This document shows, piece by piece, positions 7,845-24,265 of a stretch of 64,000 nucleotides of DNA. The stretch is from assembly GCA_035638775.1 (NCBI GenBank), contig DASQZJ010000023.1:10827-74826 (forward strand), given 5' to 3'. Origin of the DNA: Gammaproteobacteria bacterium (GTDB lineage: Bacteria; Pseudomonadota; Gammaproteobacteria; UBA5335; SLRW01). Made by a program: the position numbers and the translations under genes. Position 1 is the stretch's first letter, and each line of letters begins with the position of its first letter. Under the pieces are notes generated by a model that had not been told where the DNA came from, made no database searches, and was given only the letters and a program-made list of their open reading frames with translations.

Positions 7845-8068
7845 CGGATCATCCTCCTTGATGGTGATACGCGACAATCGCGGCGGGTACCCGTTTCGCG
7901 GGCCATGCCGGCGGGATGCCGCGGTGTCTGCTCCTTCCGGGTTCCGGTACCAGCCGGTCAGGCCGGGGGATATATATAGACCAGGGCGGGACCATGTGCA
8001 CACCCGCCGGCACGGCAAGTGCCTCCCCTCCGGCGGGGCGGCTGGCGTCCGCCCGCTCCGCCGGGCGG

Positions 8069-8869
8069 TCAGTCGTCTTCGGCGAGAAAGGAGAGCAGCA
8101 GCGCGAGCGTCTCCTGCGGTCTCTCGATCCAGAACAGGTGCCCGGCCGGGTCGAGGGTTTCCAGGCGGGCGCTGGGCAGCGCCCGCGCCAGCTGCCGCGA
8201 GTTCTCCGGGCTGACCACCCGGTCCTGCAGGCCCGTGATCACGAGCGTCGACGCCGCGATGTCCGCGAGGCGGCGGGAGGTGTCATGGGCCTCCAGGGCC
8301 CGGCGTCGGCGCGCCAGGGCCCGGACATCCAGGGGACGCTCGCGCCGGGCGGCGATCAGCCGTTGCAGAACTTCCGGATGGGCCGGCACGAAGCCCGGCG
8401 AAAACCCGGCTTCCGCGAAGCGCCGCGCCCGCTCCTCTGCGGTGAGCTCCGACGCTTCGTAGGCGCTCTCGCGGCTTTCGCTCTCCACCGTCACCGCGCG
8501 AGGGCCGCCGGCGGTGGTGCACCCGAGCACCAGCCGCCGCAGCCGTTGCGGGTGGCGAAGGGCGAACTCCTGCGCGACCATGCCGCCCATCGAGACGCCG
8601 AACACGTGGGCGCGGTCGATCTCGAGCGCGTCCATCAGGCGTGCCGTGTCGTCCGCATACCGCGCGGTGCTGTAGCGTTGTGCCGGTTTGTCGGTCCAGC
8701 CGCTGCCACGCTGATCGAATGCGAGCACCCGGTGACGCTCCGCGAGGCCCGGAACCAGACCGGCGAAGTTGCTGAGGTCCCCCTGCAAGCCGTGCAGCAG
8801 CACCACGGGCGTGCCTTGCCCCGTGATCGCGAAGCAGGTCCGGACCCGGTCGATCGTCTCCCAGGGCAT
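8069..8869 (-). CDS. Alpha/beta-fold hydrolase
   Basis: 266-aa ORF. HG oxyanion motif (VVLLHGL), nucleophile elbow GVSMGG, C-terminal GH. GAGGAG RBS. Confidence 0.85.
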   Translation of the reverse strand: MPWETIDRVRTCFAITGQGTPVVLLHGLQGDLSNFAGLVPGLAERHRVLAFDQRGSGWTDKPAQRYSTARYADDTARLMDALEIDRAHVFGVSMGGMVAQEFALRHPQRLRRLVLGCTTAGGPRAVTVESESRESAYEASELTAEERARRFAEAGFSPGFVPAHPEVLQRLIAARRERPLDVRALARRRRALEAHDTSRRLADIAASTLVITGLQDRVVSPENSRQLARALPSARLETLDPAGHLFWIERPQETLALLLSFLAEDD

Positions 8870-8915
8870 ACGCGGGTCTCCTCGTTGTCCGTATCGGCTG
8901 GCACCGGCGGGTCGG

Positions 8916-11279
8916 ATGCGGGCCCGGCAGGATCCGTTGCCACCCTGTGGTTACAGAACGTATATTGAAAATTCGACCGGGAATCGGCGCAATTCCCGCC
9001 TCCTTGAGACACAGGCTGCCACGCAGCGGCCCGGGATCCCGGATCCGGCATTGGAACGATATCCCTACTATGCCGCGCTGGGCGACATCGGAAGCCTGGT
9101 GGCCCGCGCGCCCGAGCTGACCGAGCTGCTGCAACAGGCATGCGGCCTGGTGGTCGATCATACGGGCTCGACCCTGACCTGCGTGGTCCTGGCGGAGGAA
9201 CCCGGCGGAGACAACCCGCGCATTGCCGCCTGGGCGGGACCGGCCAGGGATTACCTGGCCGGGTTGCCGGTCTGCGCGCGGAACGGCGCCTCGGGCGGAG
9301 ACGACATCGTCGGTCGCGTGTACCGGCATGGGGGTCCGCTGGCGTTCGACGACACCCGCGGGGTCCCGTCGTTCGGGCATCTCTCCGAGGCCCTGTCCGA
9401 CAGTGACGTTCCCGCCGCCGCCGGCATTCCCATATCCATCGGTGAACGCTGTCGCGGCGTGCTGGTGGCGGCCGCGGCCCACGCCGGGCATTACCGGGAC
9501 GACCTGGTCGGCCTGCTCCAGCGGGTGGCCGAGGTGCTGGCGGTCGGCATCGACCGGGCCGAGGCGCGTGAGCACAGCATCCGGTTCCAGGCCCTCTACC
9601 AGGCGCTGTCGGACGTCAACGAGCTGACCGGTCTCCCGAACCGGGCCATGTTCATGGACCGGCTCGCGGTGGCGATATCGCGTGCCGCCCGCGGGGACGA
9701 GGAGGTCGCCGTGGCGCTGATCGACCTGGACAACTTCAAGGAGATCAACGACCGGCTCGGACACGGTACCGGCGACGAGGTCATCCGCCAGCTCGCTGCC
9801 GCGGTCGTCTCGACCCTGAGAAAGAGCGACACCCTCGCCCGACTGGGCGGAGACGAGCTCGTCGCCCTTCTTCCCCTGGAGGGCCGCGGAGACGGTATCG
9901 AAAACATCATGCAGCGGGTCTTCGCAGCGGTCGCGCGCCCGTTCCCCGCGGGATCGGAGAGGCTTTCCGTGCGCATGAGCGCAGGGGTCGCGGTCTACCC
10001 GCGGGACGGGCTCGCCGCAGAGGACCTCCTGCGCCGCGCGGATCTCGCCATGTATCGCGTCAAGAGGCAGGGCGGCAATGCATGGGGCGTGTTCGAGCCG
10101 GCTCTCGAGGCACGGCTGGTCGAGCGCCACCGGGTCCGGGATCGGTTCGCCCGCGCGCTGGAGCGGGGGGCGATCGCCTTCCACTACCAGCCGATCGTCG
10201 ATCTGCGAAGCGGCGTGGTTACGGGGGCGGAGGTCCTGGTCCGGTGGAACGACCCCGGGCGGGCAACGCCGGGCCCGGGCGACTGGTCCGGCGCCGTCGA
10301 GAGCGATCCGCGCCTGGCGGCAGAGCTCGGGCGGCGCGCACTGCACGTCGCCGCGGGGCAGCTGGGGCACTGGCATGCCGACGGGAGACAGCTCTCGCTG
10401 TCGGTCGACGTCGACGTCCGCTACCTCCTGTCCGAGCGCTTCCTGGAAGATCTCCGCACGGCGCTTGCGGAAGCACCCCGGCTGGCCTCCCGGCTGGTGC
10501 TGGAGGTCGCGGAGGCCGGCCTGGAAGATAACCATCGCCGGGTCGCGGATGTGCTCGCGAGCGCGCGCGGGCTCGGCGTGCGGGTGGCACTGGACGGTTT
10601 CGGCACCGCCCGGGCATCCCTGGCGTATCTGCTCGAGTTGCCGGTCGACGGGCTCAAGATCGATCGCGGTTGCGTCGTTCGCATGCTCACGGACGTCCGC
10701 GCTTTCGGAGTCGTGGCGACCGCGGGCCAGGGCGCCTGGACCCTGGGCATGACCACGGTCGCGGAAGGCGTGGAGACCGAAAGACACGGATTCCGGCTGA
10801 TGCAGATGGGCTGCGACTGCGCGCAGGGTTCCGCCGTCGCACCGCCGATGGATGCGGCGGCGTTCGGGGAGTGGCTCGCGGCGTGGAAACCACCGGCCTC
10901 GTGGAGCAGCCGCGGCGGGTCCCGGATGTCCCCGGAGCATACCCAGCTGCTGGCCAGCCTGATCCTGCATCGCACGCGATTCGGCTCGATTCTCGATGCC
11001 ATGGCGCGGGAGAATCCTCGAGGGACCCTGCCCGTGCCGGTGGGCTCACGTTGTCCCGTGGATCGTTGGGGGGACGCCAGGGCCGCGCGGCTGCTCGGCC
11101 GCCGGTTGAACGCGATCCATCGCCGGATGCACGAGATCGAGGACGAGTGCCTGCGGAGCCTGGCCGTGTCCGGGAGCATGCCATCGCGGCTCCGCGAACG
11201 GGCGGCAAGCACCGTGTCGGAGTACGAGCGCTCGGTGGACGCGCTGATCGACGCGGGAGCCGCAGAGGGCGGGAGCTGA
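8916..11279 (+). CDS. GAF-GGDEF-EAL cyclic-di-GMP signalling protein with an extra about 150-aa C-terminal tail
   Basis: ORF 8769..11279. The 5' end overlaps the divergent hydrolase, so it is trimmed to ATG 8916. An in-frame TTG at 9051 is an alternative start, so the start is uncertain. GGDEF region RKSD-x5-GGDEL (I-site present). EAL region EVLVRW...LDGFGT...KIDR...EGVETE. Confidence 0.85.
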   Translation: MRARQDPLPPCGYRTYIENSTGNRRNSRLLETQAATQRPGIPDPALERYPYYAALGDIGSLVARAPELTELLQQACGLVVDHTGSTLTCVVLAEEPGGDNPRIAAWAGPARDYLAGLPVCARNGASGGDDIVGRVYRHGGPLAFDDTRGVPSFGHLSEALSDSDVPAAAGIPISIGERCRGVLVAAAAHAGHYRDDLVGLLQRVAEVLAVGIDRAEAREHSIRFQALYQALSDVNELTGLPNRAMFMDRLAVAISRAARGDEEVAVALIDLDNFKEINDRLGHGTGDEVIRQLAAAVVSTLRKSDTLARLGGDELVALLPLEGRGDGIENIMQRVFAAVARPFPAGSERLSVRMSAGVAVYPRDGLAAEDLLRRADLAMYRVKRQGGNAWGVFEPALEARLVERHRVRDRFARALERGAIAFHYQPIVDLRSGVVTGAEVLVRWNDPGRATPGPGDWSGAVESDPRLAAELGRRALHVAAGQLGHWHADGRQLSLSVDVDVRYLLSERFLEDLRTALAEAPRLASRLVLEVAEAGLEDNHRRVADVLASARGLGVRVALDGFGTARASLAYLLELPVDGLKIDRGCVVRMLTDVRAFGVVATAGQGAWTLGMTTVAEGVETERHGFRLMQMGCDCAQGSAVAPPMDAAAFGEWLAAWKPPASWSSRGGSRMSPEHTQLLASLILHRTRFGSILDAMARENPRGTLPVPVGSRCPVDRWGDARAARLLGRRLNAIHRRMHEIEDECLRSLAVSGSMPSRLRERAASTVSEYERSVDALIDAGAAEGGS

Positions 11280-15965: not shown

Positions 15966-16564
15966 GGTTGCCCCATTCTGGAGGGTCACCAGTCTTGTGG
16001 AAGGTATTGTCGGGTCCCAGGGCCGTCGTATGCCCTGCGGGCGCGGCACCGGAGGCGTCGGCCGCCATGGTCCGGGTCTCTTCTTCGGGCCGTGCGGTCG
16101 CGAAACCGGATGCGTGATCGCCGGGAACCCGGGTAGGAGTGCTCCGTCCGGGTCTTCCGCTCCCATTCGACGTAATTGCGCGGCGTGCGTGGCGGAATAA
16201 CCGCGGTCGACCGGCCGGTTCGCGCCGTTCACCGCCAACCGGCAGCCCGTGTGCCAGCGGGCGATCCACCCCCGGATTCCCGGTGCCGGGCACCTTCGGT
16301 CCGGGCATCGACGCGTACCGATGATGCCTGCGTTGCCCGCAGCCGCATGTCCCCGCGTCGACGGCGACTCTGCCCGGCGCGCGGCCGGTTCTCCCGGGGT
16401 TGGCGGGATATGCCATTCTACACGCCCGTGCGAGGCATTGCCCGGTCCCGTCGGCGGGAGCGCGTCACCCGCCCCGACGGGACCGGTCCTGCCCGGGGCG
16501 CCTGCGGGGCGCCGGAGGGGCCGCACCGGCTATGCTGACGGCGTGGCCCGAAGGAGAGGACGTC

Positions 16565-16933
16565 ATGCTGCACCGTTTCGAAGACCGTTCGCAGGCCCTG
16601 ATTTCGCCCCGGCGTTTCCTCCAGCGAATGCTTGGATACCTCGGGCTCGCGCTGGCGATCGACCTCCTGGTGATCACGCTGGGCGCACTGGGCTTCCACC
16701 ACTTCGAGCGCCTGACCTGGACCGGGGCGGTGCTCAACGCCGCGCTCATCATCACCGGCAACGGCCCCCTGGTACCGATGCATTCGGAGGCCGGCCGCCT
16801 GTTCGAGATCGCCTACGCCGTGTTCGGCGGCATCAGCTTCATCGCGGTCGTCTCCGTCGTGCTGGCACCGGTGTTCCACCGCGTCCTGCACGCATTCCAG
16901 CTCGGCGTGAGCGACCAGCCGCCGCCCGCCTGA
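16565..16933 (+). CDS. Small two-TM pore-loop (K+-channel-like) membrane protein with a non-canonical filter
   Basis: ORF 16400..16933 trimmed to ATG 16565 (AAGGAGAGG RBS). 122 aa: TM1 (GYLGLALAIDLLVITLGALGF), then a pore-helix-like TWTGAVLNAALIITGNGPLVP, then TM2 (GRLFEIAYAVFGGISFIAVVSVVLAPVF). Confidence 0.6.
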   Translation: MLHRFEDRSQALISPRRFLQRMLGYLGLALAIDLLVITLGALGFHHFERLTWTGAVLNAALIITGNGPLVPMHSEAGRLFEIAYAVFGGISFIAVVSVVLAPVFHRVLHAFQLGVSDQPPPA

Positions 16934-17038
16934 CGGGCTCCCGGGTGATCCGGATCAAGATCGAACGCCGCGAGCGGGCGAGAATGGGGAATGGCGGACG
17001 CCGGCCGCGCCGGCGTCCGGAACCGCGGGGATCCTGCG

Positions 17039-17854
17039 TTGTGTGAGCTCTTCGCCATGAGCAGCCGGATGCCGGCGGGGGTGCGCTTCTCGTTCCGCGA
17101 GTTCGCCTCTCACGGCGGATCGACCGGGCCTCACGCCGACGGCTGGGGGATCGCCTGGTACGAGGACCGGGACGTGCGCGTGATGCGCGAGCCGGTACCG
17201 GCCGCGCGCAGTGCCTGCGTTCGTTTCGTCGAGGCCAACGACCTGCAGGGCACGCTGGTGCTGTCGCACATCCGGCGGGCCACCCGCGGGCGCGTGTGCC
17301 TGGCCAACACGCAGCCGTTCGCCCGCGAAGTGGCCGGATACATGCACGTGTTCGCGCACAACGGCGACCTGCCGGAGCTGGACCATGCCCTCGTCGCCCG
17401 GCCCGGCGCCGCGTTCCACCCGGTCGGGCAAACCGATTCGGAATACGCCTTCTGCACCCTGCTCGACACGCTGCAGGCCGCCTGGCAGCGGTGTGCCGGA
17501 CCGCCTCCGCTCGCCCAGCGCCTCGAGGCGATCGCGGGTTTCGCCGAAAGCCTCAGGCGCCTGGGGCCGGCGAACTTCCTCTACGCCGACGGCGACGCGC
17601 TGTTCGCGCACGGCCACCGGCGGCGGCACGACGACGGAATACGCCCGCCGGGGCTCTGGATGCTGCGCCGCCGGGGTCGGCAGCCGGGCCAGTACCGGCC
17701 CGACGGCGTCGCCATCAGCTCGGCGACCGGGGACCAGGATGTCGTCCTGCTGGCGAGCGTACCGCTGAGCGACGAGGGCTGGTCACCGGTGCCCGAGGGC
17801 GAGCTGCTGGCGCTCCGCCGCGGCGGTGTCGTGGGCCGCCTGCCGCCGGGCTAG
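17039..17854 (+). CDS. Class II (Ntn) glutamine amidotransferase, YafJ-like
   Basis: The ORF 16991..17854 reading frame contains LCELFAMSS... This family starts M-C-E-L with Cys as the nucleophile, so I place the start at the TTG (17039) directly before the Cys codon. Also HADGWGIAWY and SHIRRAT motifs. Confidence 0.8.
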   Translation: MCELFAMSSRMPAGVRFSFREFASHGGSTGPHADGWGIAWYEDRDVRVMREPVPAARSACVRFVEANDLQGTLVLSHIRRATRGRVCLANTQPFAREVAGYMHVFAHNGDLPELDHALVARPGAAFHPVGQTDSEYAFCTLLDTLQAAWQRCAGPPPLAQRLEAIAGFAESLRRLGPANFLYADGDALFAHGHRRRHDDGIRPPGLWMLRRRGRQPGQYRPDGVAISSATGDQDVVLLASVPLSDEGWSPVPEGELLALRRGGVVGRLPPG

Positions 17855-19410
17855 TAGAACTCGTACTCCAGCCGCGCCACGACGGTGTCACTGGCAGCGG
17901 CGTGGCTGGCGCCGAACAGGGCCACCACGCTGTAGCGCAGGCTGGAGGTTCCGCCGGTCAGCACCCGGCCGGTCAGGCCCGGTCCGACCTGGTTGCGCGG
18001 CCGGCCGTAGTTGCCGATCCTGCCCACCGGCTCGCCATAGGCCTCGAGCACCGGCGACAGCCTGCGGTGCCAGCGGTATTCCGCCCGCGCGCGGTAGCTC
18101 AGCTCCACGCCGGGCTGGGCGTTGGTCCCGTACTGGCGCCCGGCCAGCAGGTTGACCGTCGCGGTCAGGCGCCCGAAGTCCTTCTCGAAGCTCGGCCCCA
18201 GCTTGACCTCGTAGGGGTCGTGCCCGAAGCGCGGGATCTCGTTCTCGTTGACGATGCCGACGTCGGCCCAGTACCTGCCCTGGGGCGTCAGCTGGAAGCG
18301 GTTCTCCCACTCGAATTCCTCCAGCTTCAGGCTCTCGCCGTACTCCTGCTCGGCGGTCGCGTACACCTCGGTGGCCCAGCGGTTGGTAAAGGTATGGCCG
18401 ACAGCGATCTTGGCGCCCTTCCGCGCGCCGCTCCCGGGGCCCGCTCCGCCGCTGCTCCAGGCGCGCGCCTCCAGCTCGCTCTCGCCCTTGGTAACGGCAG
18501 GCGAGTAGACCTTGTAGTCGCCCGCGCGGGCCCGGGGCGCCAGTACCAGCAGCGGCGCCCCGGCCAGGAACACCAGCGCCGCCGCGCCCGCGCGTCCGGG
18601 GCGGAGACGCAGCCGCCCGCTCCTGATCAGCATCGCCCCGCCGATTACGGCGAAGCTGCCCAGCCAGGCGATCACCTGGGTCAGCGAGGGTGTCGGCGTG
18701 TACCCGACCAGCGCGCCCAGGCTGCGCCCCAGGATGCCCTGGCCGCTCAGCAGCCAGGACGTGTTCCAGACGTTGGGCACCAGGGGCGGCAGGTAGCCGG
18801 CCTGGACCAGGAACTCGATCCCGCGCGCGAGCATGCCGGCCGCGATGAACAGGATCACGACGCCGCTGACCTGGAACAGGCGCTTGAGCGGAATGCGGGA
18901 AAGACCGGCGAACAATACCAGGCCCACGGAGGCCCCGCAGGCCAGCCCGATGAGGCTGCCGCCGAGCAGCTGCATCCCGCCCGCGCCGCTGGCCGCGATC
19001 CCGAACAGGAACAGGGCCACCTCGGAGCCCTCGCGCATGACCGCGAGCGCGGTCACCGCGACCAGCACCGTGACCGGCTCGTTGCCTGCCGCGACATCGC
19101 CGCCCAGCGACTTGAGCCGCGCGGACATCTCGCGGCCGTGCTCGGCCATCCACACGTTGTGCCAGGCCAGCATCAGGCCCGCGGCGCCGAGGACGCCGGC
19201 CTCGAACAGCTCCTGGCCGGTGCCGTGGGCCAGGCGTGAGAGCACGTCGATGCCGGCGGCGACCGCCGCCGCGCCGGCGACGCCCAGGGCGACCCCCGCG
19301 GTCACGTAGCGTCCGCGGCGCGGCAGGCCCTTGACCGCGGCCGCCACGACGCCGATGACCAGGGCCGCCTCGAGCACTTCGCGGAAAACGATGACCAGCG
19401 CGCCGATCAC
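17851..19410 (-). CDS. FTR1/EfeU-family iron permease (N-terminal about 260 aa). It continues in-frame into a signal-peptide-like segment and a beta-rich, OMP-like C-terminal domain (about 230 aa).
   Basis: 519-aa ORF with a GTG start in a GTGA overlap with the cupredoxin stop. Two REXXE motifs (FREVLEAAL, MREGSEVAL) in a multi-TM region. From the internal ATG 18633: MLIRSGRLRLRPGRAGAAALVFLAGAPLLVLAPRARA|GDYKVYSP..., an alternating-polarity beta pattern ending ..ARLEYEFY. Confidence 0.75.
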   Translation of the reverse strand: MIGALVIVFREVLEAALVIGVVAAAVKGLPRRGRYVTAGVALGVAGAAAVAAGIDVLSRLAHGTGQELFEAGVLGAAGLMLAWHNVWMAEHGREMSARLKSLGGDVAAGNEPVTVLVAVTALAVMREGSEVALFLFGIAASGAGGMQLLGGSLIGLACGASVGLVLFAGLSRIPLKRLFQVSGVVILFIAAGMLARGIEFLVQAGYLPPLVPNVWNTSWLLSGQGILGRSLGALVGYTPTPSLTQVIAWLGSFAVIGGAMLIRSGRLRLRPGRAGAAALVFLAGAPLLVLAPRARAGDYKVYSPAVTKGESELEARAWSSGGAGPGSGARKGAKIAVGHTFTNRWATEVYATAEQEYGESLKLEEFEWENRFQLTPQGRYWADVGIVNENEIPRFGHDPYEVKLGPSFEKDFGRLTATVNLLAGRQYGTNAQPGVELSYRARAEYRWHRRLSPVLEAYGEPVGRIGNYGRPRNQVGPGLTGRVLTGGTSSLRYSVVALFGASHAAASDTVVARLEYEFY

Positions 19411-19751
19411 TTCTCACCTCCGCGGGCGGCGACGACGTGCCCGGTGGTGCCCTGGTTGAAGTCGTCGAAGATCTTGTACTTGCCCGGGGAGAGCGGCCCG
19501 ACCCACACGGTCACCGTGGTGCCGGACGGGACCACCTTCTCGCGGTTGAGGTCGAAGCTCTCGAACTCCGAGGGCAGCTTGCGCTTGTTGGTCACCAGAA
19601 GTTTCACCCGCTTGCCGGCGGGTACGGTGGTGGTGGCCGGATCGAAGCTGTTGGCCTTGATGGCGATGTGGAACGTGGGGGTCCCCGCCGCGAGCGCGGC
19701 ACCCGGCGCAAGCATGAGGGCGAGGACAAGTGTAGCGGCGCGCAGACGCAT
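19407..19751 (-). CDS. Periplasmic cupredoxin-fold protein (Cys-less), partner of the FTR1 permease
   Basis: 114-aa ORF. Signal peptide MRLRAATLVLALMLAPGAALA. ..FDPATTTVPAGKRVKLLVTN..SEFESFDLNREKVVPSGTTVTVWVGPLSPGKYKIFDD.. matches the Cupredoxin_1-like pattern seen next to FTR1 genes. AGGAG RBS. Confidence 0.75.
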   Translation of the reverse strand: MRLRAATLVLALMLAPGAALAAGTPTFHIAIKANSFDPATTTVPAGKRVKLLVTNKRKLPSEFESFDLNREKVVPSGTTVTVWVGPLSPGKYKIFDDFNQGTTGHVVAARGGEK

Positions 19752-19793
19752 GCGACGGACTCCTGTGATCGTGAGGCCGCGGGGGCACGGTAC

Positions 19794-19822
19794 GAATAAG
19801 AATGATAACGATTCTTATTTAT
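19794..19822. promoter_or_regulatory. Fur-box-like palindromic operator in the divergent cupredoxin-FTR1 / pldA intergenic region
   Basis: AATAAGAAT-gataacg-ATTCTTATT is a perfect 9-bp inverted repeat. The core AAGAATGATAACGATTCTT matches 13/19 of the Fur consensus GATAATGATAATCATTATC. It is the only AT-rich island in this GC-rich spacer and lies about 45 nt upstream of the cupredoxin ATG. Confidence 0.55.
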
Positions 19823-19947
19823 CTTGCAAGCATTCCCTGACGACTGAATCCCGTATACCCTCTGCTCCGGGGAGCGGTGGAGGGCCCGTTTCGATGGGTC
19901 CCGTTCCGCGGTACCGCGGTGGGTGCGCGCCCGGCACGGAGCGTTAC

Positions 19948-20811
19948 ATGAAGCACAAGGGAGCGTGGCTGATCGCGGCGCTGGTGTCCGTCGGTCCTGC
20001 CGCACACGCCGCCGGCGGTGACCCGGCCGGCCCGGCCAGCGCCGAAACCGCGCCCGCGCGGGCCCGAAGCGCTCTCGACCTGGCGGCCTACCGGCCGACC
20101 TACGTGCTGCCGCTGACGTATGTGACCGGGCTCAACCGGGCGCCGTTCGGTTCCCAGGGAAAGACCTTCCGCAACCAGGAAATGCAGTTCCAGCTGAGCC
20201 TGCGGTTCCCCGTCTGGAGCCACCCGCTCGGGCACCGCAATGCCAACCTGGTGTTCGGCTACACCCAGCGGGCTTTCTGGCAGGCCTACGATCGCGCCGA
20301 CTCGTCCCCGTTCCGCGAGACCGACCACGAGCCCGAGCTGATGGTGGAGGTGCACACCGATTACCGCTGGCTGGGCTTTCGCACGCGCATCATCCGGGCG
20401 GGGCTGGATCACCAGTCCAACGGCCAGGCGAACCCGCTCTCGCGCAGCTGGAACCGCGTTTTCGCCGAGGTCGTCGCGCAGCGCGGCGACTTCGCCTTCA
20501 GCTTCCGGCCCTGGTACCGGATCCCCGCCCCGGCGGGCAGCGACGACAACCCGGACATCACCCACTACATGGGCTACGCGCAGTTCCGGGTGGGATTCCG
20601 CCACGGCCGGGACGAGTACACGCTGATGTTCCGGGACAACTTCAACCCGCGCGACAACCGGGGCGCCATCCGCCTCGGCTGGAGCTTCCCGCTCAACGAG
20701 CGGCTGCGCGGCTACGTCCAGTTCTTCAACGGTTACGGCGAGAGCCTGATCGACTACAACGTGCGGGTAATGCGCATCGGCGCGGGGGTGATGCTCACGA
20801 ACTGGCTATGA
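19948..20811 (+). CDS. pldA: Outer-membrane phospholipase A (OMPLA)
   Basis: ORF 19444..20811 trimmed to ATG 19948 (MKHKGAWLIAALVSVGPAAHA signal peptide). YRPTYVLPLTY, catalytic LDHQSNG (His-x-Ser) followed by SRSWNR (Asn). C-terminal beta-barrel pattern. Confidence 0.85.
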   Translation: MKHKGAWLIAALVSVGPAAHAAGGDPAGPASAETAPARARSALDLAAYRPTYVLPLTYVTGLNRAPFGSQGKTFRNQEMQFQLSLRFPVWSHPLGHRNANLVFGYTQRAFWQAYDRADSSPFRETDHEPELMVEVHTDYRWLGFRTRIIRAGLDHQSNGQANPLSRSWNRVFAEVVAQRGDFAFSFRPWYRIPAPAGSDDNPDITHYMGYAQFRVGFRHGRDEYTLMFRDNFNPRDNRGAIRLGWSFPLNERLRGYVQFFNGYGESLIDYNVRVMRIGAGVMLTNWL

Positions 20812-22617
20812 CCGGCTCGCGCCGCCGGCCAGCGAGGCCGGGACCGGTACCGGGAAGTCCAGCAGCTGCTGGGCCTTGCCCTTGGCCAGGGGGTCCAGCC
20901 GCAGGCTGGCGAACTGGCCGCCGCCGAGAGCGTCGTGCAGGTGGAAGTTGACGGCATCGAGGCCGGGCGCGTCGAAGCGCTCCACGCGGGCCCCTGCCGG
21001 GTCCTCGAATTCGTGCACGAACCAGTCCCGCACGACCTCGGTCGTCAGCGCCGCCCGGATCCAGGGCAGGTACTCGGGCCGGCGCGCGATCACGCCGACG
21101 TTGAAGGCGTCGCCCTTGTCCCCGGAGCGTGCCCAGGCCAGCTCGATCAGGGGACGCTCGACCATATCGCCCTCGGCCCGGGGCTCCGGCGGCGGAGCGG
21201 GTCGCTCGACCGCGGCCGGATCGAAAACCCGCGCCGGAGGCGGCACGGCGACGTGCTCGTCGCCGCCGTCCAGGTGCACCGTCACGCCGATGCGCTCCCG
21301 GGGCATGGTGGTGGAGAACACCCGCATCACTGGCACGGCCTGTGCCCGGGCCCCGAACCAGCCCGTGGTCCCGACCGCCAGCGAAGTGGTGGGCGAGTCC
21401 CATTCCCGCTGCAGGTAGCGGAATGCCGCCGGATCCTCGTGCTCGACGCCCAGCTTGCACACGACCTCCCGGGTATCGCGGGCACGGGCGTTGGCACCGT
21501 AGGTCGCCTCTGCGCCGATGGCCTCGATGCGGTGGGCGCGGAACGGCCCCAGGCCGCGCTCGACGAGCATCCCGTTGACCCGGTCGAGGATCGCGCGCGC
21601 CTGGCGCTCGGCCTTGCGCGCCGCGTCGCGGCCGACGATCGGCATGAACGCGAAACAGCGATGGCCGTCCTGGTGGGTGATGGTGATCTTGTAGCGCCCG
21701 GTCGGCGGGTAGCCGACGACGCCGGTGACCCGCACGCGGTCGGCGCCGTCCTGCGCCAGGCGCACCCGCGAGAAGTCGCAGACCACGTCCGGGAGCATGT
21801 AGATCTGGGGGTCGTCGATCTCGTAGAAGATCTGCTCGGCGACCGTGGCGCACGTCACGAGGCCTCCGGTGCCCGCGGGCTTGGTGACGGTGAACGTGCC
21901 GTCCGCCTCGCACTCCACGATCGGGTAGCCCATGTGGGTCCAGTCGGGCACCTCCTCCCAGTCGGTGAACAGGCCGCCGGTCGCCTGCGCGCCGCACTCG
22001 ATGATGTGGCCGGCCAGCGAGCCTGCCGCCAGGCGGTCGTGGTCCTCCGGCGTCCACCCGAATTCGTGCACCAGCGGACCCAGCGCCAGGGCGGAGTCCA
22101 CGACGCGACCCGTCACGACCACGTCCGCGCCCATCGCCAGGGCCCGCGCGACGGGCGTCGCCCCGAGGTAGGCGTTCGCCGTGGCGACGTTGTCCGGGTC
22201 CGGGAACGGGGCGCCGGAGTAGAGCTCCGTCGTGCCGTCGGCCGCCAGCTCCGGCAGCAGGGCATGGACGTCGTCACCCTCGATCCAGGCGATGCGGAAC
22301 GCCAGTCCGGCCTCGTCCGCCCAGCGCTGCATCCGCTCGACGCAGGCGCGCGGGTTGACCCCGCCGGCATTGGTGACGATGCGCGTGCCGCTGTCGCGGA
22401 TCAGCTGGAGGTTGTCCTTCCACACCCAGTCGGTGAAGTCGCGGGCGTAGCCGAGATCCGGCCGCGCGGCGTGCAGCCGGCCCAGGACGGACATGGTCGC
22501 CTCGGCCAGGTAGTCGAGCATCAGGTAGTCGACGCCGGCCTGCATCAGCTGCGTCGGCGCCATGGACGAGTCGCCGTAGAAGGCGCAGGCGCCGCCGATC
22601 GTCACGGTTCGGGTCAT
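20806..22617 (-). CDS. AtuA-like (DUF1446, acyclic terpene utilisation family) protein
   Basis: 603-aa ORF. MTRTVTIGGACAFYGDS...DYLMLDYLAE...NAGG.NP...GAD.VVTGRV.D.AL..GP..HEFGW...GHIIECGAQATGG is the pattern I associate with AtuA/DUF1446. No other atu genes are nearby. Confidence 0.8.
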   Translation of the reverse strand: MTRTVTIGGACAFYGDSSMAPTQLMQAGVDYLMLDYLAEATMSVLGRLHAARPDLGYARDFTDWVWKDNLQLIRDSGTRIVTNAGGVNPRACVERMQRWADEAGLAFRIAWIEGDDVHALLPELAADGTTELYSGAPFPDPDNVATANAYLGATPVARALAMGADVVVTGRVVDSALALGPLVHEFGWTPEDHDRLAAGSLAGHIIECGAQATGGLFTDWEEVPDWTHMGYPIVECEADGTFTVTKPAGTGGLVTCATVAEQIFYEIDDPQIYMLPDVVCDFSRVRLAQDGADRVRVTGVVGYPPTGRYKITITHQDGHRCFAFMPIVGRDAARKAERQARAILDRVNGMLVERGLGPFRAHRIEAIGAEATYGANARARDTREVVCKLGVEHEDPAAFRYLQREWDSPTTSLAVGTTGWFGARAQAVPVMRVFSTTMPRERIGVTVHLDGGDEHVAVPPPARVFDPAAVERPAPPPEPRAEGDMVERPLIELAWARSGDKGDAFNVGVIARRPEYLPWIRAALTTEVVRDWFVHEFEDPAGARVERFDAPGLDAVNFHLHDALGGGQFASLRLDPLAKGKAQQLLDFPVPVPASLAGGASRS

Positions 22618-22750: not shown

Positions 22751-24070
22751 TCACATGGAGGCGTCGGGCTCGTGCGTGGGCGCCTTCGGCTGCCCGGCCG
22801 TGGACTCGCCCGCGGCCTTGAGCCGGCGGATCAGCTTCTGCTGCTTGGCGTAGGCGTCGGGCAGGTTGCCGTAGCGCAGCGAGGCATTGCAATCCTTCAG
22901 CGCCGCACGCAGCTTGCCGAGGTGCATTTCGGCGTAGCAGCGGTTGTTGTAGGCGATGGCCATGTTGTTGTCGGATTCGTGCTTCGCGTCATAGAGATAA
23001 TGATATCGGCGCAGCTCGGAGAGCATGTGGTGCAGGTCGTGGGTACGGCCGTAGACGACCGACATGTCGATTACGTAGTTGTTGTGCCCGGTGTCGTCGG
23101 CGACCAGCCGGGTGTCGCTGTGCATCGCCTGCGCGGCAAGCTGCAGGATGGCCGACGAGTAGCGCTGGCCGCCCTGGTAGCCGATCATGCCGCCGATCAG
23201 CCCTTCCACCCTGGAGCTGAAGTCGGCCTTGTCGACCTTGTCGTAGCTGTTGAGCAGCCGGTACACGTGCCGGTCCAGCCCGGCGGTCACCAGCTGCTGC
23301 ATGGTCTGGCGCACGCAGCGGGCCCCGATCTTCTGCTTCGGCTGGTAGCAGTGGACGGTCGCGGTGTTCAGCAGGGCGTCGTAAAGGTCGAGATAGAGCA
23401 TCTTGAGCGGCGAATCGCCGTGCGCCTGCAGGATTTCGAGCACCAGGCCGGCCGTGTACGGATTGTCCCCGCCCAGGTGCATGGCCTTGCCGAGGTCCTG
23501 CAGCGCCTGCTGCATGTCGTCCGAGAACGCCTGCATGTGCGCCGGCTCCACCACGTTCGCGAACCGGTTGCCCCGGACCCGCCAGCCGGTCCGGAAGTAG
23601 TAGACCGCACGCACCAGGTACGGCATCGGGGCGTTCGCGTCCTGCCGCACCCAGCGGTCGAGCTGTTCGCGGAAGTGCGCGTTGCCGGGCAGGGGAATGT
23701 CCTCGATGAATGCCGCGAAGGGCGCGTAGTACCAGCCGTTCATGCTGGTCTGCTTCAGCGAGCGTTCGAGCGCCCGGTTCGCACGGCCGAACCGGCCGTG
23801 TTCGATCGCGGAGGTCACCTTCATCGCGTCCGCGAACAGCGGCCGGACGTGGTGACGGTATCGGGGCAGCTTCGCTGCCTGCCGGTCGAGCGCGGCCAGC
23901 CGGGACGCTTGCGGGCCATTCGCCTGGTGCCTTGCCGGCGTGCGCGCCGCCGGAAGCCGGTCGAAGCGCAAAGCCGCGGTTGCGCCCGCGGCCAGGATGA
24001 TGCCCGCCAGGACGATCGAGACGACAAAGCCGGGTCGCACCGGCTTCCGGCTACGGGTGTCCTGCACCAT
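22751..24070 (-). CDS. Membrane-anchored hypothetical protein, DUF4034-like with a TPR-like C-terminus
   Basis: ORF 22751..24139 trimmed to ATG 24070 (GGGAGGGAG RBS). One N-terminal TM (GFVVSIVLAGIILAAGATAAL). ..WVRQDANAPMPYLVRAVYYFRTGWRVRGNRF.. resembles the DUF4034 signature (from memory). GC is noticeably lower than in neighbouring genes. Confidence 0.6.
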   Translation of the reverse strand: MVQDTRSRKPVRPGFVVSIVLAGIILAAGATAALRFDRLPAARTPARHQANGPQASRLAALDRQAAKLPRYRHHVRPLFADAMKVTSAIEHGRFGRANRALERSLKQTSMNGWYYAPFAAFIEDIPLPGNAHFREQLDRWVRQDANAPMPYLVRAVYYFRTGWRVRGNRFANVVEPAHMQAFSDDMQQALQDLGKAMHLGGDNPYTAGLVLEILQAHGDSPLKMLYLDLYDALLNTATVHCYQPKQKIGARCVRQTMQQLVTAGLDRHVYRLLNSYDKVDKADFSSRVEGLIGGMIGYQGGQRYSSAILQLAAQAMHSDTRLVADDTGHNNYVIDMSVVYGRTHDLHHMLSELRRYHYLYDAKHESDNNMAIAYNNRCYAEMHLGKLRAALKDCNASLRYGNLPDAYAKQQKLIRRLKAAGESTAGQPKAPTHEPDASM

Positions 24071-24265
24071 GCTGCTCCCTCCCCGGCGCCCGTTCGGTGA
24101 CGGGTTCGTCTTTTTCCCGGCACCTTCCAGGCTCTTCACCGATACCTTTAGCCCGCTCGCACGCCGGCCTCAAGGTTTGCTTTCATGGATCGGGCCGGTT
24201 CCGGACGGGTGGCGGCATTCGGGTGACGAGTGGCAGCAGGATCAAGGGGTTGCGCAGTGCCGGGG

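Follow-up and report, generated by a model that had tools for sequence, protein, structure and literature searches.

One reading frame for two membranes? An FTR1 iron permease that continues through a signal-peptide-like junction into a predicted outer-membrane barrel

How can one reading frame serve two membranes? The question is raised by a gammaproteobacterial stretch of 64,000 nucleotides (GenBank assembly GCA_035638775.1, contig DASQZJ010000023.1, forward-strand positions 10,827 to 74,826), which was analysed as a whole and is called the window below. A single open reading frame (ORF) on its minus strand (17851..19410; 519 codons, stop included in these coordinates) leads from an FTR1-type iron permease, through a segment resembling a signal peptide, into a part predicted to be an outer-membrane (OM) beta-barrel. 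Descriptions of Ftr- and Efe-type uptake systems stop at inner-membrane and periplasmic components, and the crossing of the outer membrane by free ferrous iron is usually ascribed to general porins. Literature searches found no published description of an FTR1-barrel fusion, of this barrel, or of an OM component of an Ftr or Efe system.

A preliminary description of this DNA, made from the sequence alone, offered three accounts of the frame: two genes joined in frame by loss of a stop codon, with internal initiation; a polyprotein cleaved by signal peptidase; or a genuine periplasmic beta-domain. The second is the best supported by our results, through the topology of the permease, an A-x-A motif like that of true signal peptides, and fused members that have no methionine at the junction (18/122). 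In our view the locus is probably a compact operon for iron uptake of the Ftr type, probably under Fur control, in which one ORF gives two proteins for two membranes, split by signal peptidase.

A permease, an internal signal-like segment and a predicted barrel

The single frame was found both in the ORF list and in our independent translation, as first described. Its GTG start and the stop of the cupredoxin gene upstream overlap by 4 nt (GTGA), with GGAGG just 5' of the start. Pfam FTR1 (PF03239) matched residues 1-256 with 101.8 bits (E 5.5e-29; cut-off 25.3), and the two REXXE motifs reported earlier are present as REVLE (10-14) and REGSE (126-130), both in predicted transmembrane (TM) helices. 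R10, E11, E14, R126 and E130 are invariant among 65 fused homologues. The NCBIfam EfeU equivalog model NF041756 gave 145.2 bits against a cut-off of 255, which makes the protein a family member and not an EfeU equivalog. AlphaFold2 (AF2) placed helices at residues 2-25, 32-61, 66-107, 113-140, 145-169, 175-203 and 243-264. In the 65 fused proteins the mean net charge was +2.0, +1.5, +2.1 and +3.1 for loops 1, 3, 5 and 7, and -1.5, -0.2 and -1.0 for loops 2, 4 and 6. The permease is therefore predicted, by the positive-inside rule, to have seven TM helices with the N-terminus outside and the C-terminus in the cytoplasm; TM7 would end in the cytoplasm, and the hydrophobic segment after it would run from inside to outside, like a signal peptide. 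The same N-out/C-in arrangement has been published for Ftr1p and EfeU.

For the C-terminal part (residues 260-519), neither Pfam nor NCBIfam gave a match with E relaxed to 1, sub-threshold OMP_b-brl matches being the most that was seen, and a sequence-profile search of the barrel against PDB returned nothing at E up to 10. AF2, run on this part with a 21-sequence alignment, predicted twelve long antiparallel strands behind a disordered, signal-like N-terminus (predicted local distance difference test, pLDDT, 87; predicted TM-score, pTM, 0.80), in line with the barrel that had been anticipated. The leading Foldseek matches in PDB were all OM barrels, namely KdgM (TM-score 0.71), NanC (0.68), VhGalP (0.65) and FapF (0.63-0.65), together with Tsx, OmpG, OMPLA, the barrels of autotransporters and intimin, and a designed transmembrane barrel of 12 strands. 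Across 276 family members, one face of the strands is hydrophobic or aromatic and has about 0% acidic residues; its mean Kyte-Doolittle value is +0.2 to +1.8, strand 4 being the exception with -0.6 on its less polar side. The opposite face is polar and contains 20-46% Asp/Glu. The best-conserved residues lie on this polar face (E310, E314, E348, E369, N370, D383, E389, N420, E515 and E517), and the mature N-terminus carries a conserved DYKVYSPxVxxGE segment.

The aromatic terminus pointed out in the preliminary description, ARLEYEFY, belongs to a family pattern: the proteins end in Phi-E-Y-E-F plus or minus one aromatic residue, which is the beta-signal pattern of outer-membrane proteins (OMPs). 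F or Y closes the chain in 99 of the 122 fused proteins and in 123 of the 142 stand-alone ones. These features argue for a 12-stranded OM beta-barrel as the predicted structure. In size (about 220 residues), strand number, fold (TM-score 0.6-0.7), short loops and aromatic C-terminus it resembles KdgM/NanC/VhGalP, Tsx and FapF. It has no detectable sequence relationship to KdgM/NanC, Tsx or FapF, its genomic partners differ from theirs, and its polar face is acidic, whereas the KdgM/NanC channels take acidic sugars and are lined with basic residues.

Between the two domains the sequence reads MLIRSGRLRLRPGRAGAAALVFLAGAPLLVLAPRARA, followed by GDYKVYSP after the predicted cleavage site. The earlier reading of codon 260 as the beginning of a signal-peptide-like segment agrees with the sequence, and the A-x-A at its end is conserved in about 89% of fused members. 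In the window protein, five Arg lie within residues 263-273, the h-region has 18 residues, and the c-region A-R-A is followed by G. Over the family, the loop corresponding to residues 262-274 averages 3.4 Lys plus Arg and 0.3 Asp plus Glu, and the h-region has a median of 19 residues (122 fused proteins). Ala occupies position -1 in 121 and position -3 in 110 of these 122; the signal peptides of the stand-alone homologues have A-x-A in 117/141. An A.A motif no more than 8 residues before the barrel start was found in 105/122 fused proteins compared with 11.8% of control windows from the same Ala-rich proteins, and 90 of these 105 have Pro or Gly at -4 to -8. When 65 fused homologues were aligned, the remaining linker had no sequence consensus; conservation of little beyond A-x-A is how signal peptides evolve. 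A lipoprotein signal was ruled out, since no Cys lies near the predicted site.

The full-length AF2 model contained two confident domains, with a pTM of only 0.47, a pLDDT of about 50 over residues 270-300, and a helix at 275-289 of low confidence. The permease and barrel modules thus look independent in the model, with no fixed interdomain packing predicted. Homology to FTR1 extends to residue 279 and homology to barrel precursors begins at 285, without a gap or frameshift between them. The window string 'GGAMLIRSGRLRLRPGRAGAAAL' is homologous to the FTR1 tail '...GLMFTKSGRLDRKRNRTKAAAL...' of an unfused relative, locus L001, in which the tail continues for a few residues and its stop overlaps the ATG of the barrel gene. 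Met260 aligns with the conserved Met of ...GLMFTKSGRL... in unfused FTR1 tails, which indicates that it is a conserved permease residue and not the inherited start codon of a barrel gene. In the fused form, compared with the split one, a short deletion has removed the last residues of the tail together with the stop and start codons.

With the full-length protein as query, more than 100 clusters were found whose members, of 505-536 amino acids (aa), align over its whole length (100%) with identities of 39-92%. Their sources are Gamma-, Beta- and Alphaproteobacteria, along with a few metagenome-assembled genomes (MAGs) assigned to other phyla; the MAG labels were used as given even though some are plainly wrong. 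A cultured carrier of the fusion is Acidihalobacter aeolianus (WP_070073219.1, annotated 'FTR1 family protein / Iron permease'), and in public databases the proteins are named 'FTR1 family protein' or 'hypothetical protein'. When the C-terminal 260 aa were used as the query, 34 proteins were found, nearly all stand-alone and about 250 aa long. These stand-alone barrels have their own Met and an N-terminal signal peptide in register with the junction. This query missed every full-length fused homologue, even the 92% identical one, an effect of the word-index prefilter. An exhaustive profile search gave representatives of 2,207 clusters (50% identity) with E no higher than 1e-3, of which 1,255 reached 1e-10, in two length classes of about 250 and about 520 aa. 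Barrel proteins of 330-440 aa had been considered as cupredoxin-barrel fusions; Pfam showed them to be FTR1-barrel fusions ended by contig ends. Whether homologues of the two halves are encoded as separate genes had been raised earlier as a check; in other genomes they are. The concern that the C-terminal part might be a common soluble extension of FTR1 proteins was half right: the extension is common, and it is predicted to be a membrane barrel and not a soluble domain.

Gene arrangement was surveyed at 80 loci from one scan of species-representative genomes, classed by purpose-built hidden Markov models (HMMs). The fusion was present in 27 loci, and in 23 a separate barrel ORF lay directly 3' of FTR1, often with a 4-nt ATGA/GTGA overlap. 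Two loci had the order barrel-cupredoxin-FTR1, four were at contig ends, and 24 had a barrel and no FTR1 within 7 kb. On a rough neighbour-joining (NJ) tree, fused and split forms are intermingled and imply at least 37 changes of state, a count inflated by tree error; fusion or fission would clearly not have been a single event. Such interleaving fits two states that yield the same products and are nearly equivalent. We read the fusion as an old, recurrent and conserved state and not as a local loss of a stop. For the first of the three original accounts, this means that the two-gene component stands, in the form of separate overlapping genes in many genomes, and the local stop loss does not.

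Cupredoxin partner, operon context and Fur-like sites

The gene directly upstream encodes a cupredoxin (Pfam Cupredoxin_1, E 4.4e-26) with a Sec signal peptide (MRLRAATLVLALMLAPGAALA, then AG). Its PDB match is 8vuk (E 5e-14), a cupredoxin-like protein of EfeO type and presumably the FtrB structure from Brucella reported in PMC11966278. The preliminary description had noted that this protein contains no Cys and hence no type-1 copper site. The protein indeed has none, and this is not an oddity: Cys-less cupredoxins are the norm for FtrB/EfeO-type Cup domains (PMC11966278). An EFES(F/L)(D/E)L stretch is conserved between the window cupredoxin and FtrB. The proposed Cu2+ ligands of FtrB are D118 and H121 (PMC11966278). 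At the corresponding place (residues ~95-99) the window protein has FDDFN where Brucella FtrB has FDDFH, the Asp being kept and, unusually, His121 replaced by Asn. The family motif is mostly FGEFN or FDDFN, and FGEFH also occurs.

A Cupredoxin_1 gene lies directly 5' in 26/27 fused loci, in all loci with adjacent separate genes, and in 15/24 of those with no FTR1. The FTR1-less cupredoxin-barrel pairs include Acinetobacter brisouii and Salinisphaera hydrothermalis. Such pairs were recorded at L003, L009, L021-L023, L033 (Salinisphaera hydrothermalis), L038, L059, L061, L069, L070, L073, L077 and L088 (Acinetobacter), and several of them have Fur-like boxes of 14-15/19. Either these pairs rely on a permease encoded farther away, or they serve some separate function. 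From these pairs it seems possible that the closest partner of the barrel is the cupredoxin rather than the permease.

In some relatives within the clade of the window (L001/L016, L012, L014 and L017), FtrD-like and P19 genes follow, which puts the barrel inside an FtrABCD-type operon; the order in the nearest relatives is cupredoxin-FTR1-barrel-FtrD-P19. The FtrD HMM (Fer4_5) drifted to alternative-frame ORFs in GC-rich DNA, and only P19 matches and gene calls were used for this assignment. At L001 the operon is followed by an OprB-family porin gene (7983-9050) and a multicopper-oxidase/CopB-like gene (9528-10747), a link to copper handling. In the 64-kb window, tblastn with a relative's proteins found neither P19 nor FtrD at E up to 0.01, in agreement with the earlier remark that these partners are absent. 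Both are required in Bordetella FtrABCD (PMC11966278).

Compared with the FtrABCD system of Bordetella and Brucella (FtrA, P19; FtrB, cupredoxin; FtrC, FTR1 permease; FtrD, polyferredoxin), the window shares an FtrC-type permease and a preceding FtrB-like cupredoxin, and to judge from the Fur-like box its regulation may be iron-dependent as well. It differs by the missing P19 and FtrD and by the Asn in place of His121. The predicted OM barrel fused or adjacent to FtrC would be a fifth component in the window family, outside the described system; the only barrels mentioned in PMC11966278, in general terms, are TonB-dependent. EfeUOB of E. coli and Pseudomonas and yeast Ftr1p/Fet3p use the same permease family and the same proposed logic, in which periplasmic oxidation is coupled to import. 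The window lacks an EfeO M75 domain, an EfeB peroxidase and a multicopper oxidase, and EfeU has no C-terminal extension.

One promoter-like site was found in positions 17500-20100, where shuffled sequences gave a mean of 0.1; it lies upstream of the cupredoxin gene. A Fur-box-like site, ATAAATAAGAATCGTTATC, agrees with the Fur consensus at 13/19 positions, and is contained in the palindrome ATAAGAAT-N7-ATTCTTAT, which overlaps the -10 hexamer. The surrounding 19796-19829 is an AT-rich island in DNA of about 70% GC. A strict search for the Fur consensus (no more than 3 mismatches) found nothing in the window, and our argument uses weaker matches that are conserved in position: 57/67 loci have a Fur-like site of at least 12/19 (up to 17/19) 5' of the cupredoxin gene, at a constant distance from it, and it is usually the best match of the locus.

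Release of the barrel and competing explanations

We propose the following route. Residues 1-264 would form the 7-TM FTR1/FtrC permease, with a periplasmic N-terminus and a cytoplasmic C-terminus. The basic loop 262-274, the hydrophobic segment 275-292 and A-R-A at 294-296 would then act as a signal peptide inserted from inside to outside, export the following 223 residues via Sec, and present A-x-A to signal peptidase I. A cut after Ala296 would leave the permease with an extra C-terminal helix (TM8). The released precursor of the 12-stranded barrel would be taken to the outer membrane by the beta-barrel assembly machinery (BAM), with the C-terminal L-E-Y-E-F(Y) as its signal, and starts at Met260 may supply extra precursor with the same signal peptide and the same mature protein. 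From its acidic conserved face, the barrel would most likely be a cation (Fe2+) channel or binding site feeding the cupredoxin and the permease. Ferrous iron would enter through the barrel, be handled or oxidised by the cupredoxin, and be imported by the REXXE permease.

Precedents for this route are partial. The FbcH cytochrome b-c1 polyprotein of Bradyrhizobium japonicum is reportedly split at an internal signal peptide. It is likewise one ORF in which a polytopic inner-membrane protein is followed by an internal signal-peptide-like segment and a second, exported protein, and by analogy it would be the nearest precedent for the processing logic. The difference is that both FbcH products are said to join one inner-membrane complex after a proven cleavage, while the released product here is predicted to reach the outer membrane by a cleavage that we propose. 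Autotransporters and Cyc2 cytochrome-porins also combine a 12- to 16-stranded OM barrel with a partner domain in a single polypeptide, Cyc2 in an iron context. Their signal peptide is N-terminal and both parts are at the outer membrane, whereas in the window the partner is a 7-TM inner-membrane protein and the signal peptide is internal.

Since there is no stop codon, ribosomes that translate the permease continue into the barrel, a fusion protein is made, and cleavage is the simplest means of release. A rival account is that of nested genes, with the barrel precursor arising mainly from starts at Met260 and the read-through fusion being a minor or useless by-product. Codon 260 is ATG (18633-18631), preceded by GGC GGG GCG, and the upstream sequence GGCGGGGCG gives a duplex with the anti-Shine-Dalgarno (anti-SD) sequence of -5.5 kcal/mol, close to the median of true FTR1 starts (-5.2) and stronger than that of other internal Met codons (-2.8). 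The Gly-Gly codons of the GGxM motif are GGAGG, GGGGG or GGGGA in 14/20 fused genes and in 16/122 other Gly-Gly pairs of the same ORFs, where GGCGGC predominates. Among the junction Met codons 70% reach -8 kcal/mol or below, a level seen at 0.8% of 249 internal Met codons elsewhere, and a product beginning at Met260 would have a normal n-h-c signal peptide. The strong junctions lie in alpha- and betaproteobacterial clades (L024, L026-L029, L031, L032, L034, L040, L047, L051, L057, L060 and L063), in which GGAGG or GGGGG is 4 nt from the ATG and about 40 codons before the barrel. This codon usage suggests a selected internal ribosome-binding or pause site in the last permease helix.

The same data limit that account. 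The closest fused relatives of the window (L011-L014, gamma) have energies of -1.7 to -2.8 kcal/mol and no SD-like sequence, and in 18/122 fused proteins there is no Met 20-50 residues before the barrel; in these, release would have to come from processing. A spacing of only 4 nt is short, the SD-like strings may equally reflect pausing or shared ancestry, and every ribosome that translates FTR1 would still make a fusion needing disposal. As judged from the codons, support for internal initiation is clear in the alpha and beta clades, only moderate in the window and absent in its closest gamma relatives. The part of the first original account that concerned internal initiation is retained to this extent, with Met260 itself not an inherited start. 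We concluded that processing of the read-through product is probably the general mechanism, to which an internal start was added in some clades and possibly in the window, both routes yielding the same mature barrel. Nested genes as the main source, a reading compatible with processing and not exclusive of it, seem to us rather unlikely, if well worth keeping in mind.

Processing also has to be compared with a fusion that stays whole, in which TM8 would hold the beta domain as a periplasmic metal-binding or gating domain or as a bridge to the outer membrane. The conserved architecture would suit such a protein, and its conserved acidic residues could bind metal. Against it, homologues occur as free secreted proteins with cleavable signal peptides, the junction A-x-A is conserved, AF2 gave no defined domain packing, and the fold matches only transmembrane OM barrels, with a hydrophobic outer face and a C-terminal beta-signal. 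Moreover, only about 18 residues connect the hydrophobic segment with strand 1. Fully extended they would measure an estimated 6 nm, and the periplasm is about 20 nm wide; a tether is thus improbable, and one spanning the periplasm was ruled out. We therefore give very little credence to the uncleaved fusion, and the third original account, a tethered periplasmic beta-domain, was not supported. An assembly or sequencing error, or a recent stop loss that joined two genes in a single genome, would be in line with some close relatives whose separate genes differ by a short junction indel. It is next to inconceivable given that an identical 519-aa protein is deposited at NCBI (HYW03630.1, a gammaproteobacterial MAG), JGI/IMG and ENA (ERZ27257104), that a 92% identical cluster and more than 100 others share the in-frame junction, and that homology passes from FTR1 to barrel precursor without interruption.

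A further possibility accepts the cleaved OM barrel and gives it another task: to form a pore for copper or another metal, to dock the cupredoxin, or to serve as a small general porin kept in the operon for stoichiometry. In its favour, cupredoxin and barrel are paired in 15/80 genomes without an FTR1 gene in the surrounding 7 kb, Cupredoxin_1 also occurs in copper systems, a weak CopI match was seen, and the FTR1 family includes non-iron members, for example in lead uptake. Fur-like boxes nevertheless lie 5' of FTR1-less pairs as well (L003, L009, L023 and L038), the nearest relatives have the barrel in FtrABCD-like operons with P19 and FtrD, and both REXXE iron motifs are invariant. We consider this option improbable, though less so than a fusion that stays whole.

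Several results weigh against an iron-uptake polyprotein. In bacteria, natural polyproteins processed by signal peptidase I are a rarity. The cleavage-site statistics come from our own rule-based search, which favours A-x-A (a control was included), and the sequences share ancestry and are not independent observations. With an SD-like junction in many fused genes, internal initiation may be the main route in some lineages. On the structural side, the Foldseek E values are modest (1e-6), identity to known barrels is about 10%, Foldseek is the single source of the fold assignment, and the closure of the barrel with its acidic face towards the lumen is suggested by Foldseek matches and strand parity. 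The 24 loci with a barrel and no nearby FTR1 mean that the role of the barrel need not depend on FTR1. The Fur-like site of the window reaches only 13/19. Finally, with Asn in place of His121 and neither P19 nor FtrD encoded in the window, the Bordetella/Brucella mechanism is not simply transferable.

With these points counted, processing by signal peptidase remains the account that we prefer. The uptake system itself is known; what appears to be new is an unrecognised family of OM partners, delivered as one ORF for two membranes. Gene order, fusion and the Fur-like box link the barrel to FTR1 and the cupredoxin, and we propose it as a third, outer-membrane tier. The most far-reaching form of this proposal is that an ORF split by signal peptidase I arose repeatedly from ATGA-overlapping pairs, and that the family of about 2,200 clusters of acidic barrels is a dedicated OM entry for Ftr-type ferrous iron; on this our judgement is evenly balanced. 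Cultured carriers (Acidihalobacter, Parvibaculum, Acinetobacter brisouii and Salinisphaera) are open to direct study. For protein targeting, the family would be a natural and widespread case of one polypeptide that needs sorting to two membranes, and a possible model for signal peptidase cleavage after a polytopic protein, for the passage from co-translational Sec insertion to BAM, and for the interchange of fusion, 4-nt overlap and internal starts in balancing two products. In annotation terms, a barrel domain that deserves its own family goes unrecorded in hundreds of entries of about 520 aa named 'FTR1 family protein'.

Coordinates and neighbouring genes

Table 1. Features of the fused ORF and of the region upstream of it, in window coordinates.
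Feature	Position	Strand	Basis
FTR1, internal signal peptide (predicted) and barrel (predicted), whole ORF	17851..19410	-	translation, homology search
FTR1/FtrC-type permease domain, residues 1-264, predicted 7 TM, N-out/C-in	18619..19410	-	Pfam, AF2, positive-inside rule
REXXE no. 1, R10-E-V-L-E14	19369..19383	-	sequence, conservation
REXXE no. 2, R126-E-G-S-E130	19021..19035	-	sequence, conservation
Met260 ATG, end of TM7 (motif IGGxM), possible secondary internal start	18631..18633	-	alignment, anti-SD energy
Basic cytoplasmic loop, residues 262-274 (IRSGRLRLRPGRA), equivalent of an n-region	18589..18627	-	loop charge
Hydrophobic segment, residues 275-292 (GAAALVFLAGAPLLVLAP), h-region; proposed TM8 after cleavage	18535..18588	-	AF2, h-region survey
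c-region R-A-R-A, residues 293-296; predicted signal peptidase I site after Ala296 (ARA/GD)	18523..18534	-	-1/-3 statistics
Predicted mature barrel, residues 297-519 (223 aa)	17854..18522	-	AF2, Foldseek, dyad pattern
FtrB-like periplasmic cupredoxin, 114 aa	19407..19751	-	Pfam Cupredoxin_1, PDB 8vuk match
Fur-box-like AT-rich element, overlapping the -10 hexamer	19796..19822	-	consensus score, palindrome
sigma70-like promoter (TTGCAA, 16 nt spacer, TATCAT), 5' of the cupredoxin gene	19802..19829	-	consensus match only

At its 3' end, the stop of the fused ORF overlaps, inside CTAG (17851-17854), the stop of a convergent class-II glutamine amidotransferase gene (16991-17854, plus strand; GATase_4, E 3.8e-66). 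The two genes are separated by neither intergenic space nor a terminator. Terminator-like hairpins at 18920-19031 are located within coding sequence and were dismissed as chance matches.

On the other side, an outer-membrane phospholipase A gene (19894-20811, plus strand; Pfam PLA1, E 3.5e-93) is divergent from the cupredoxin promoter region. Its product is itself a 12-stranded OM barrel, and the adjacency is also present in the ENA contig copy (L093). Farther along, an AtuA-family gene (20806-22617, minus strand) adjoins an ORF of 462 aa (22751-24139, minus strand) that has an N-terminal hydrophobic segment and no Pfam match at E up to 0.001. An uncertain ORF of 177 aa at 16400-16933 (plus strand) gave a sub-threshold match to the two-TM channel family Ion_trans_2 (21.6 against 22.5 bits) and may encode a small K+-channel-like protein; the gene call for this region in L093 differs, being 122 aa long and on the opposite strand.

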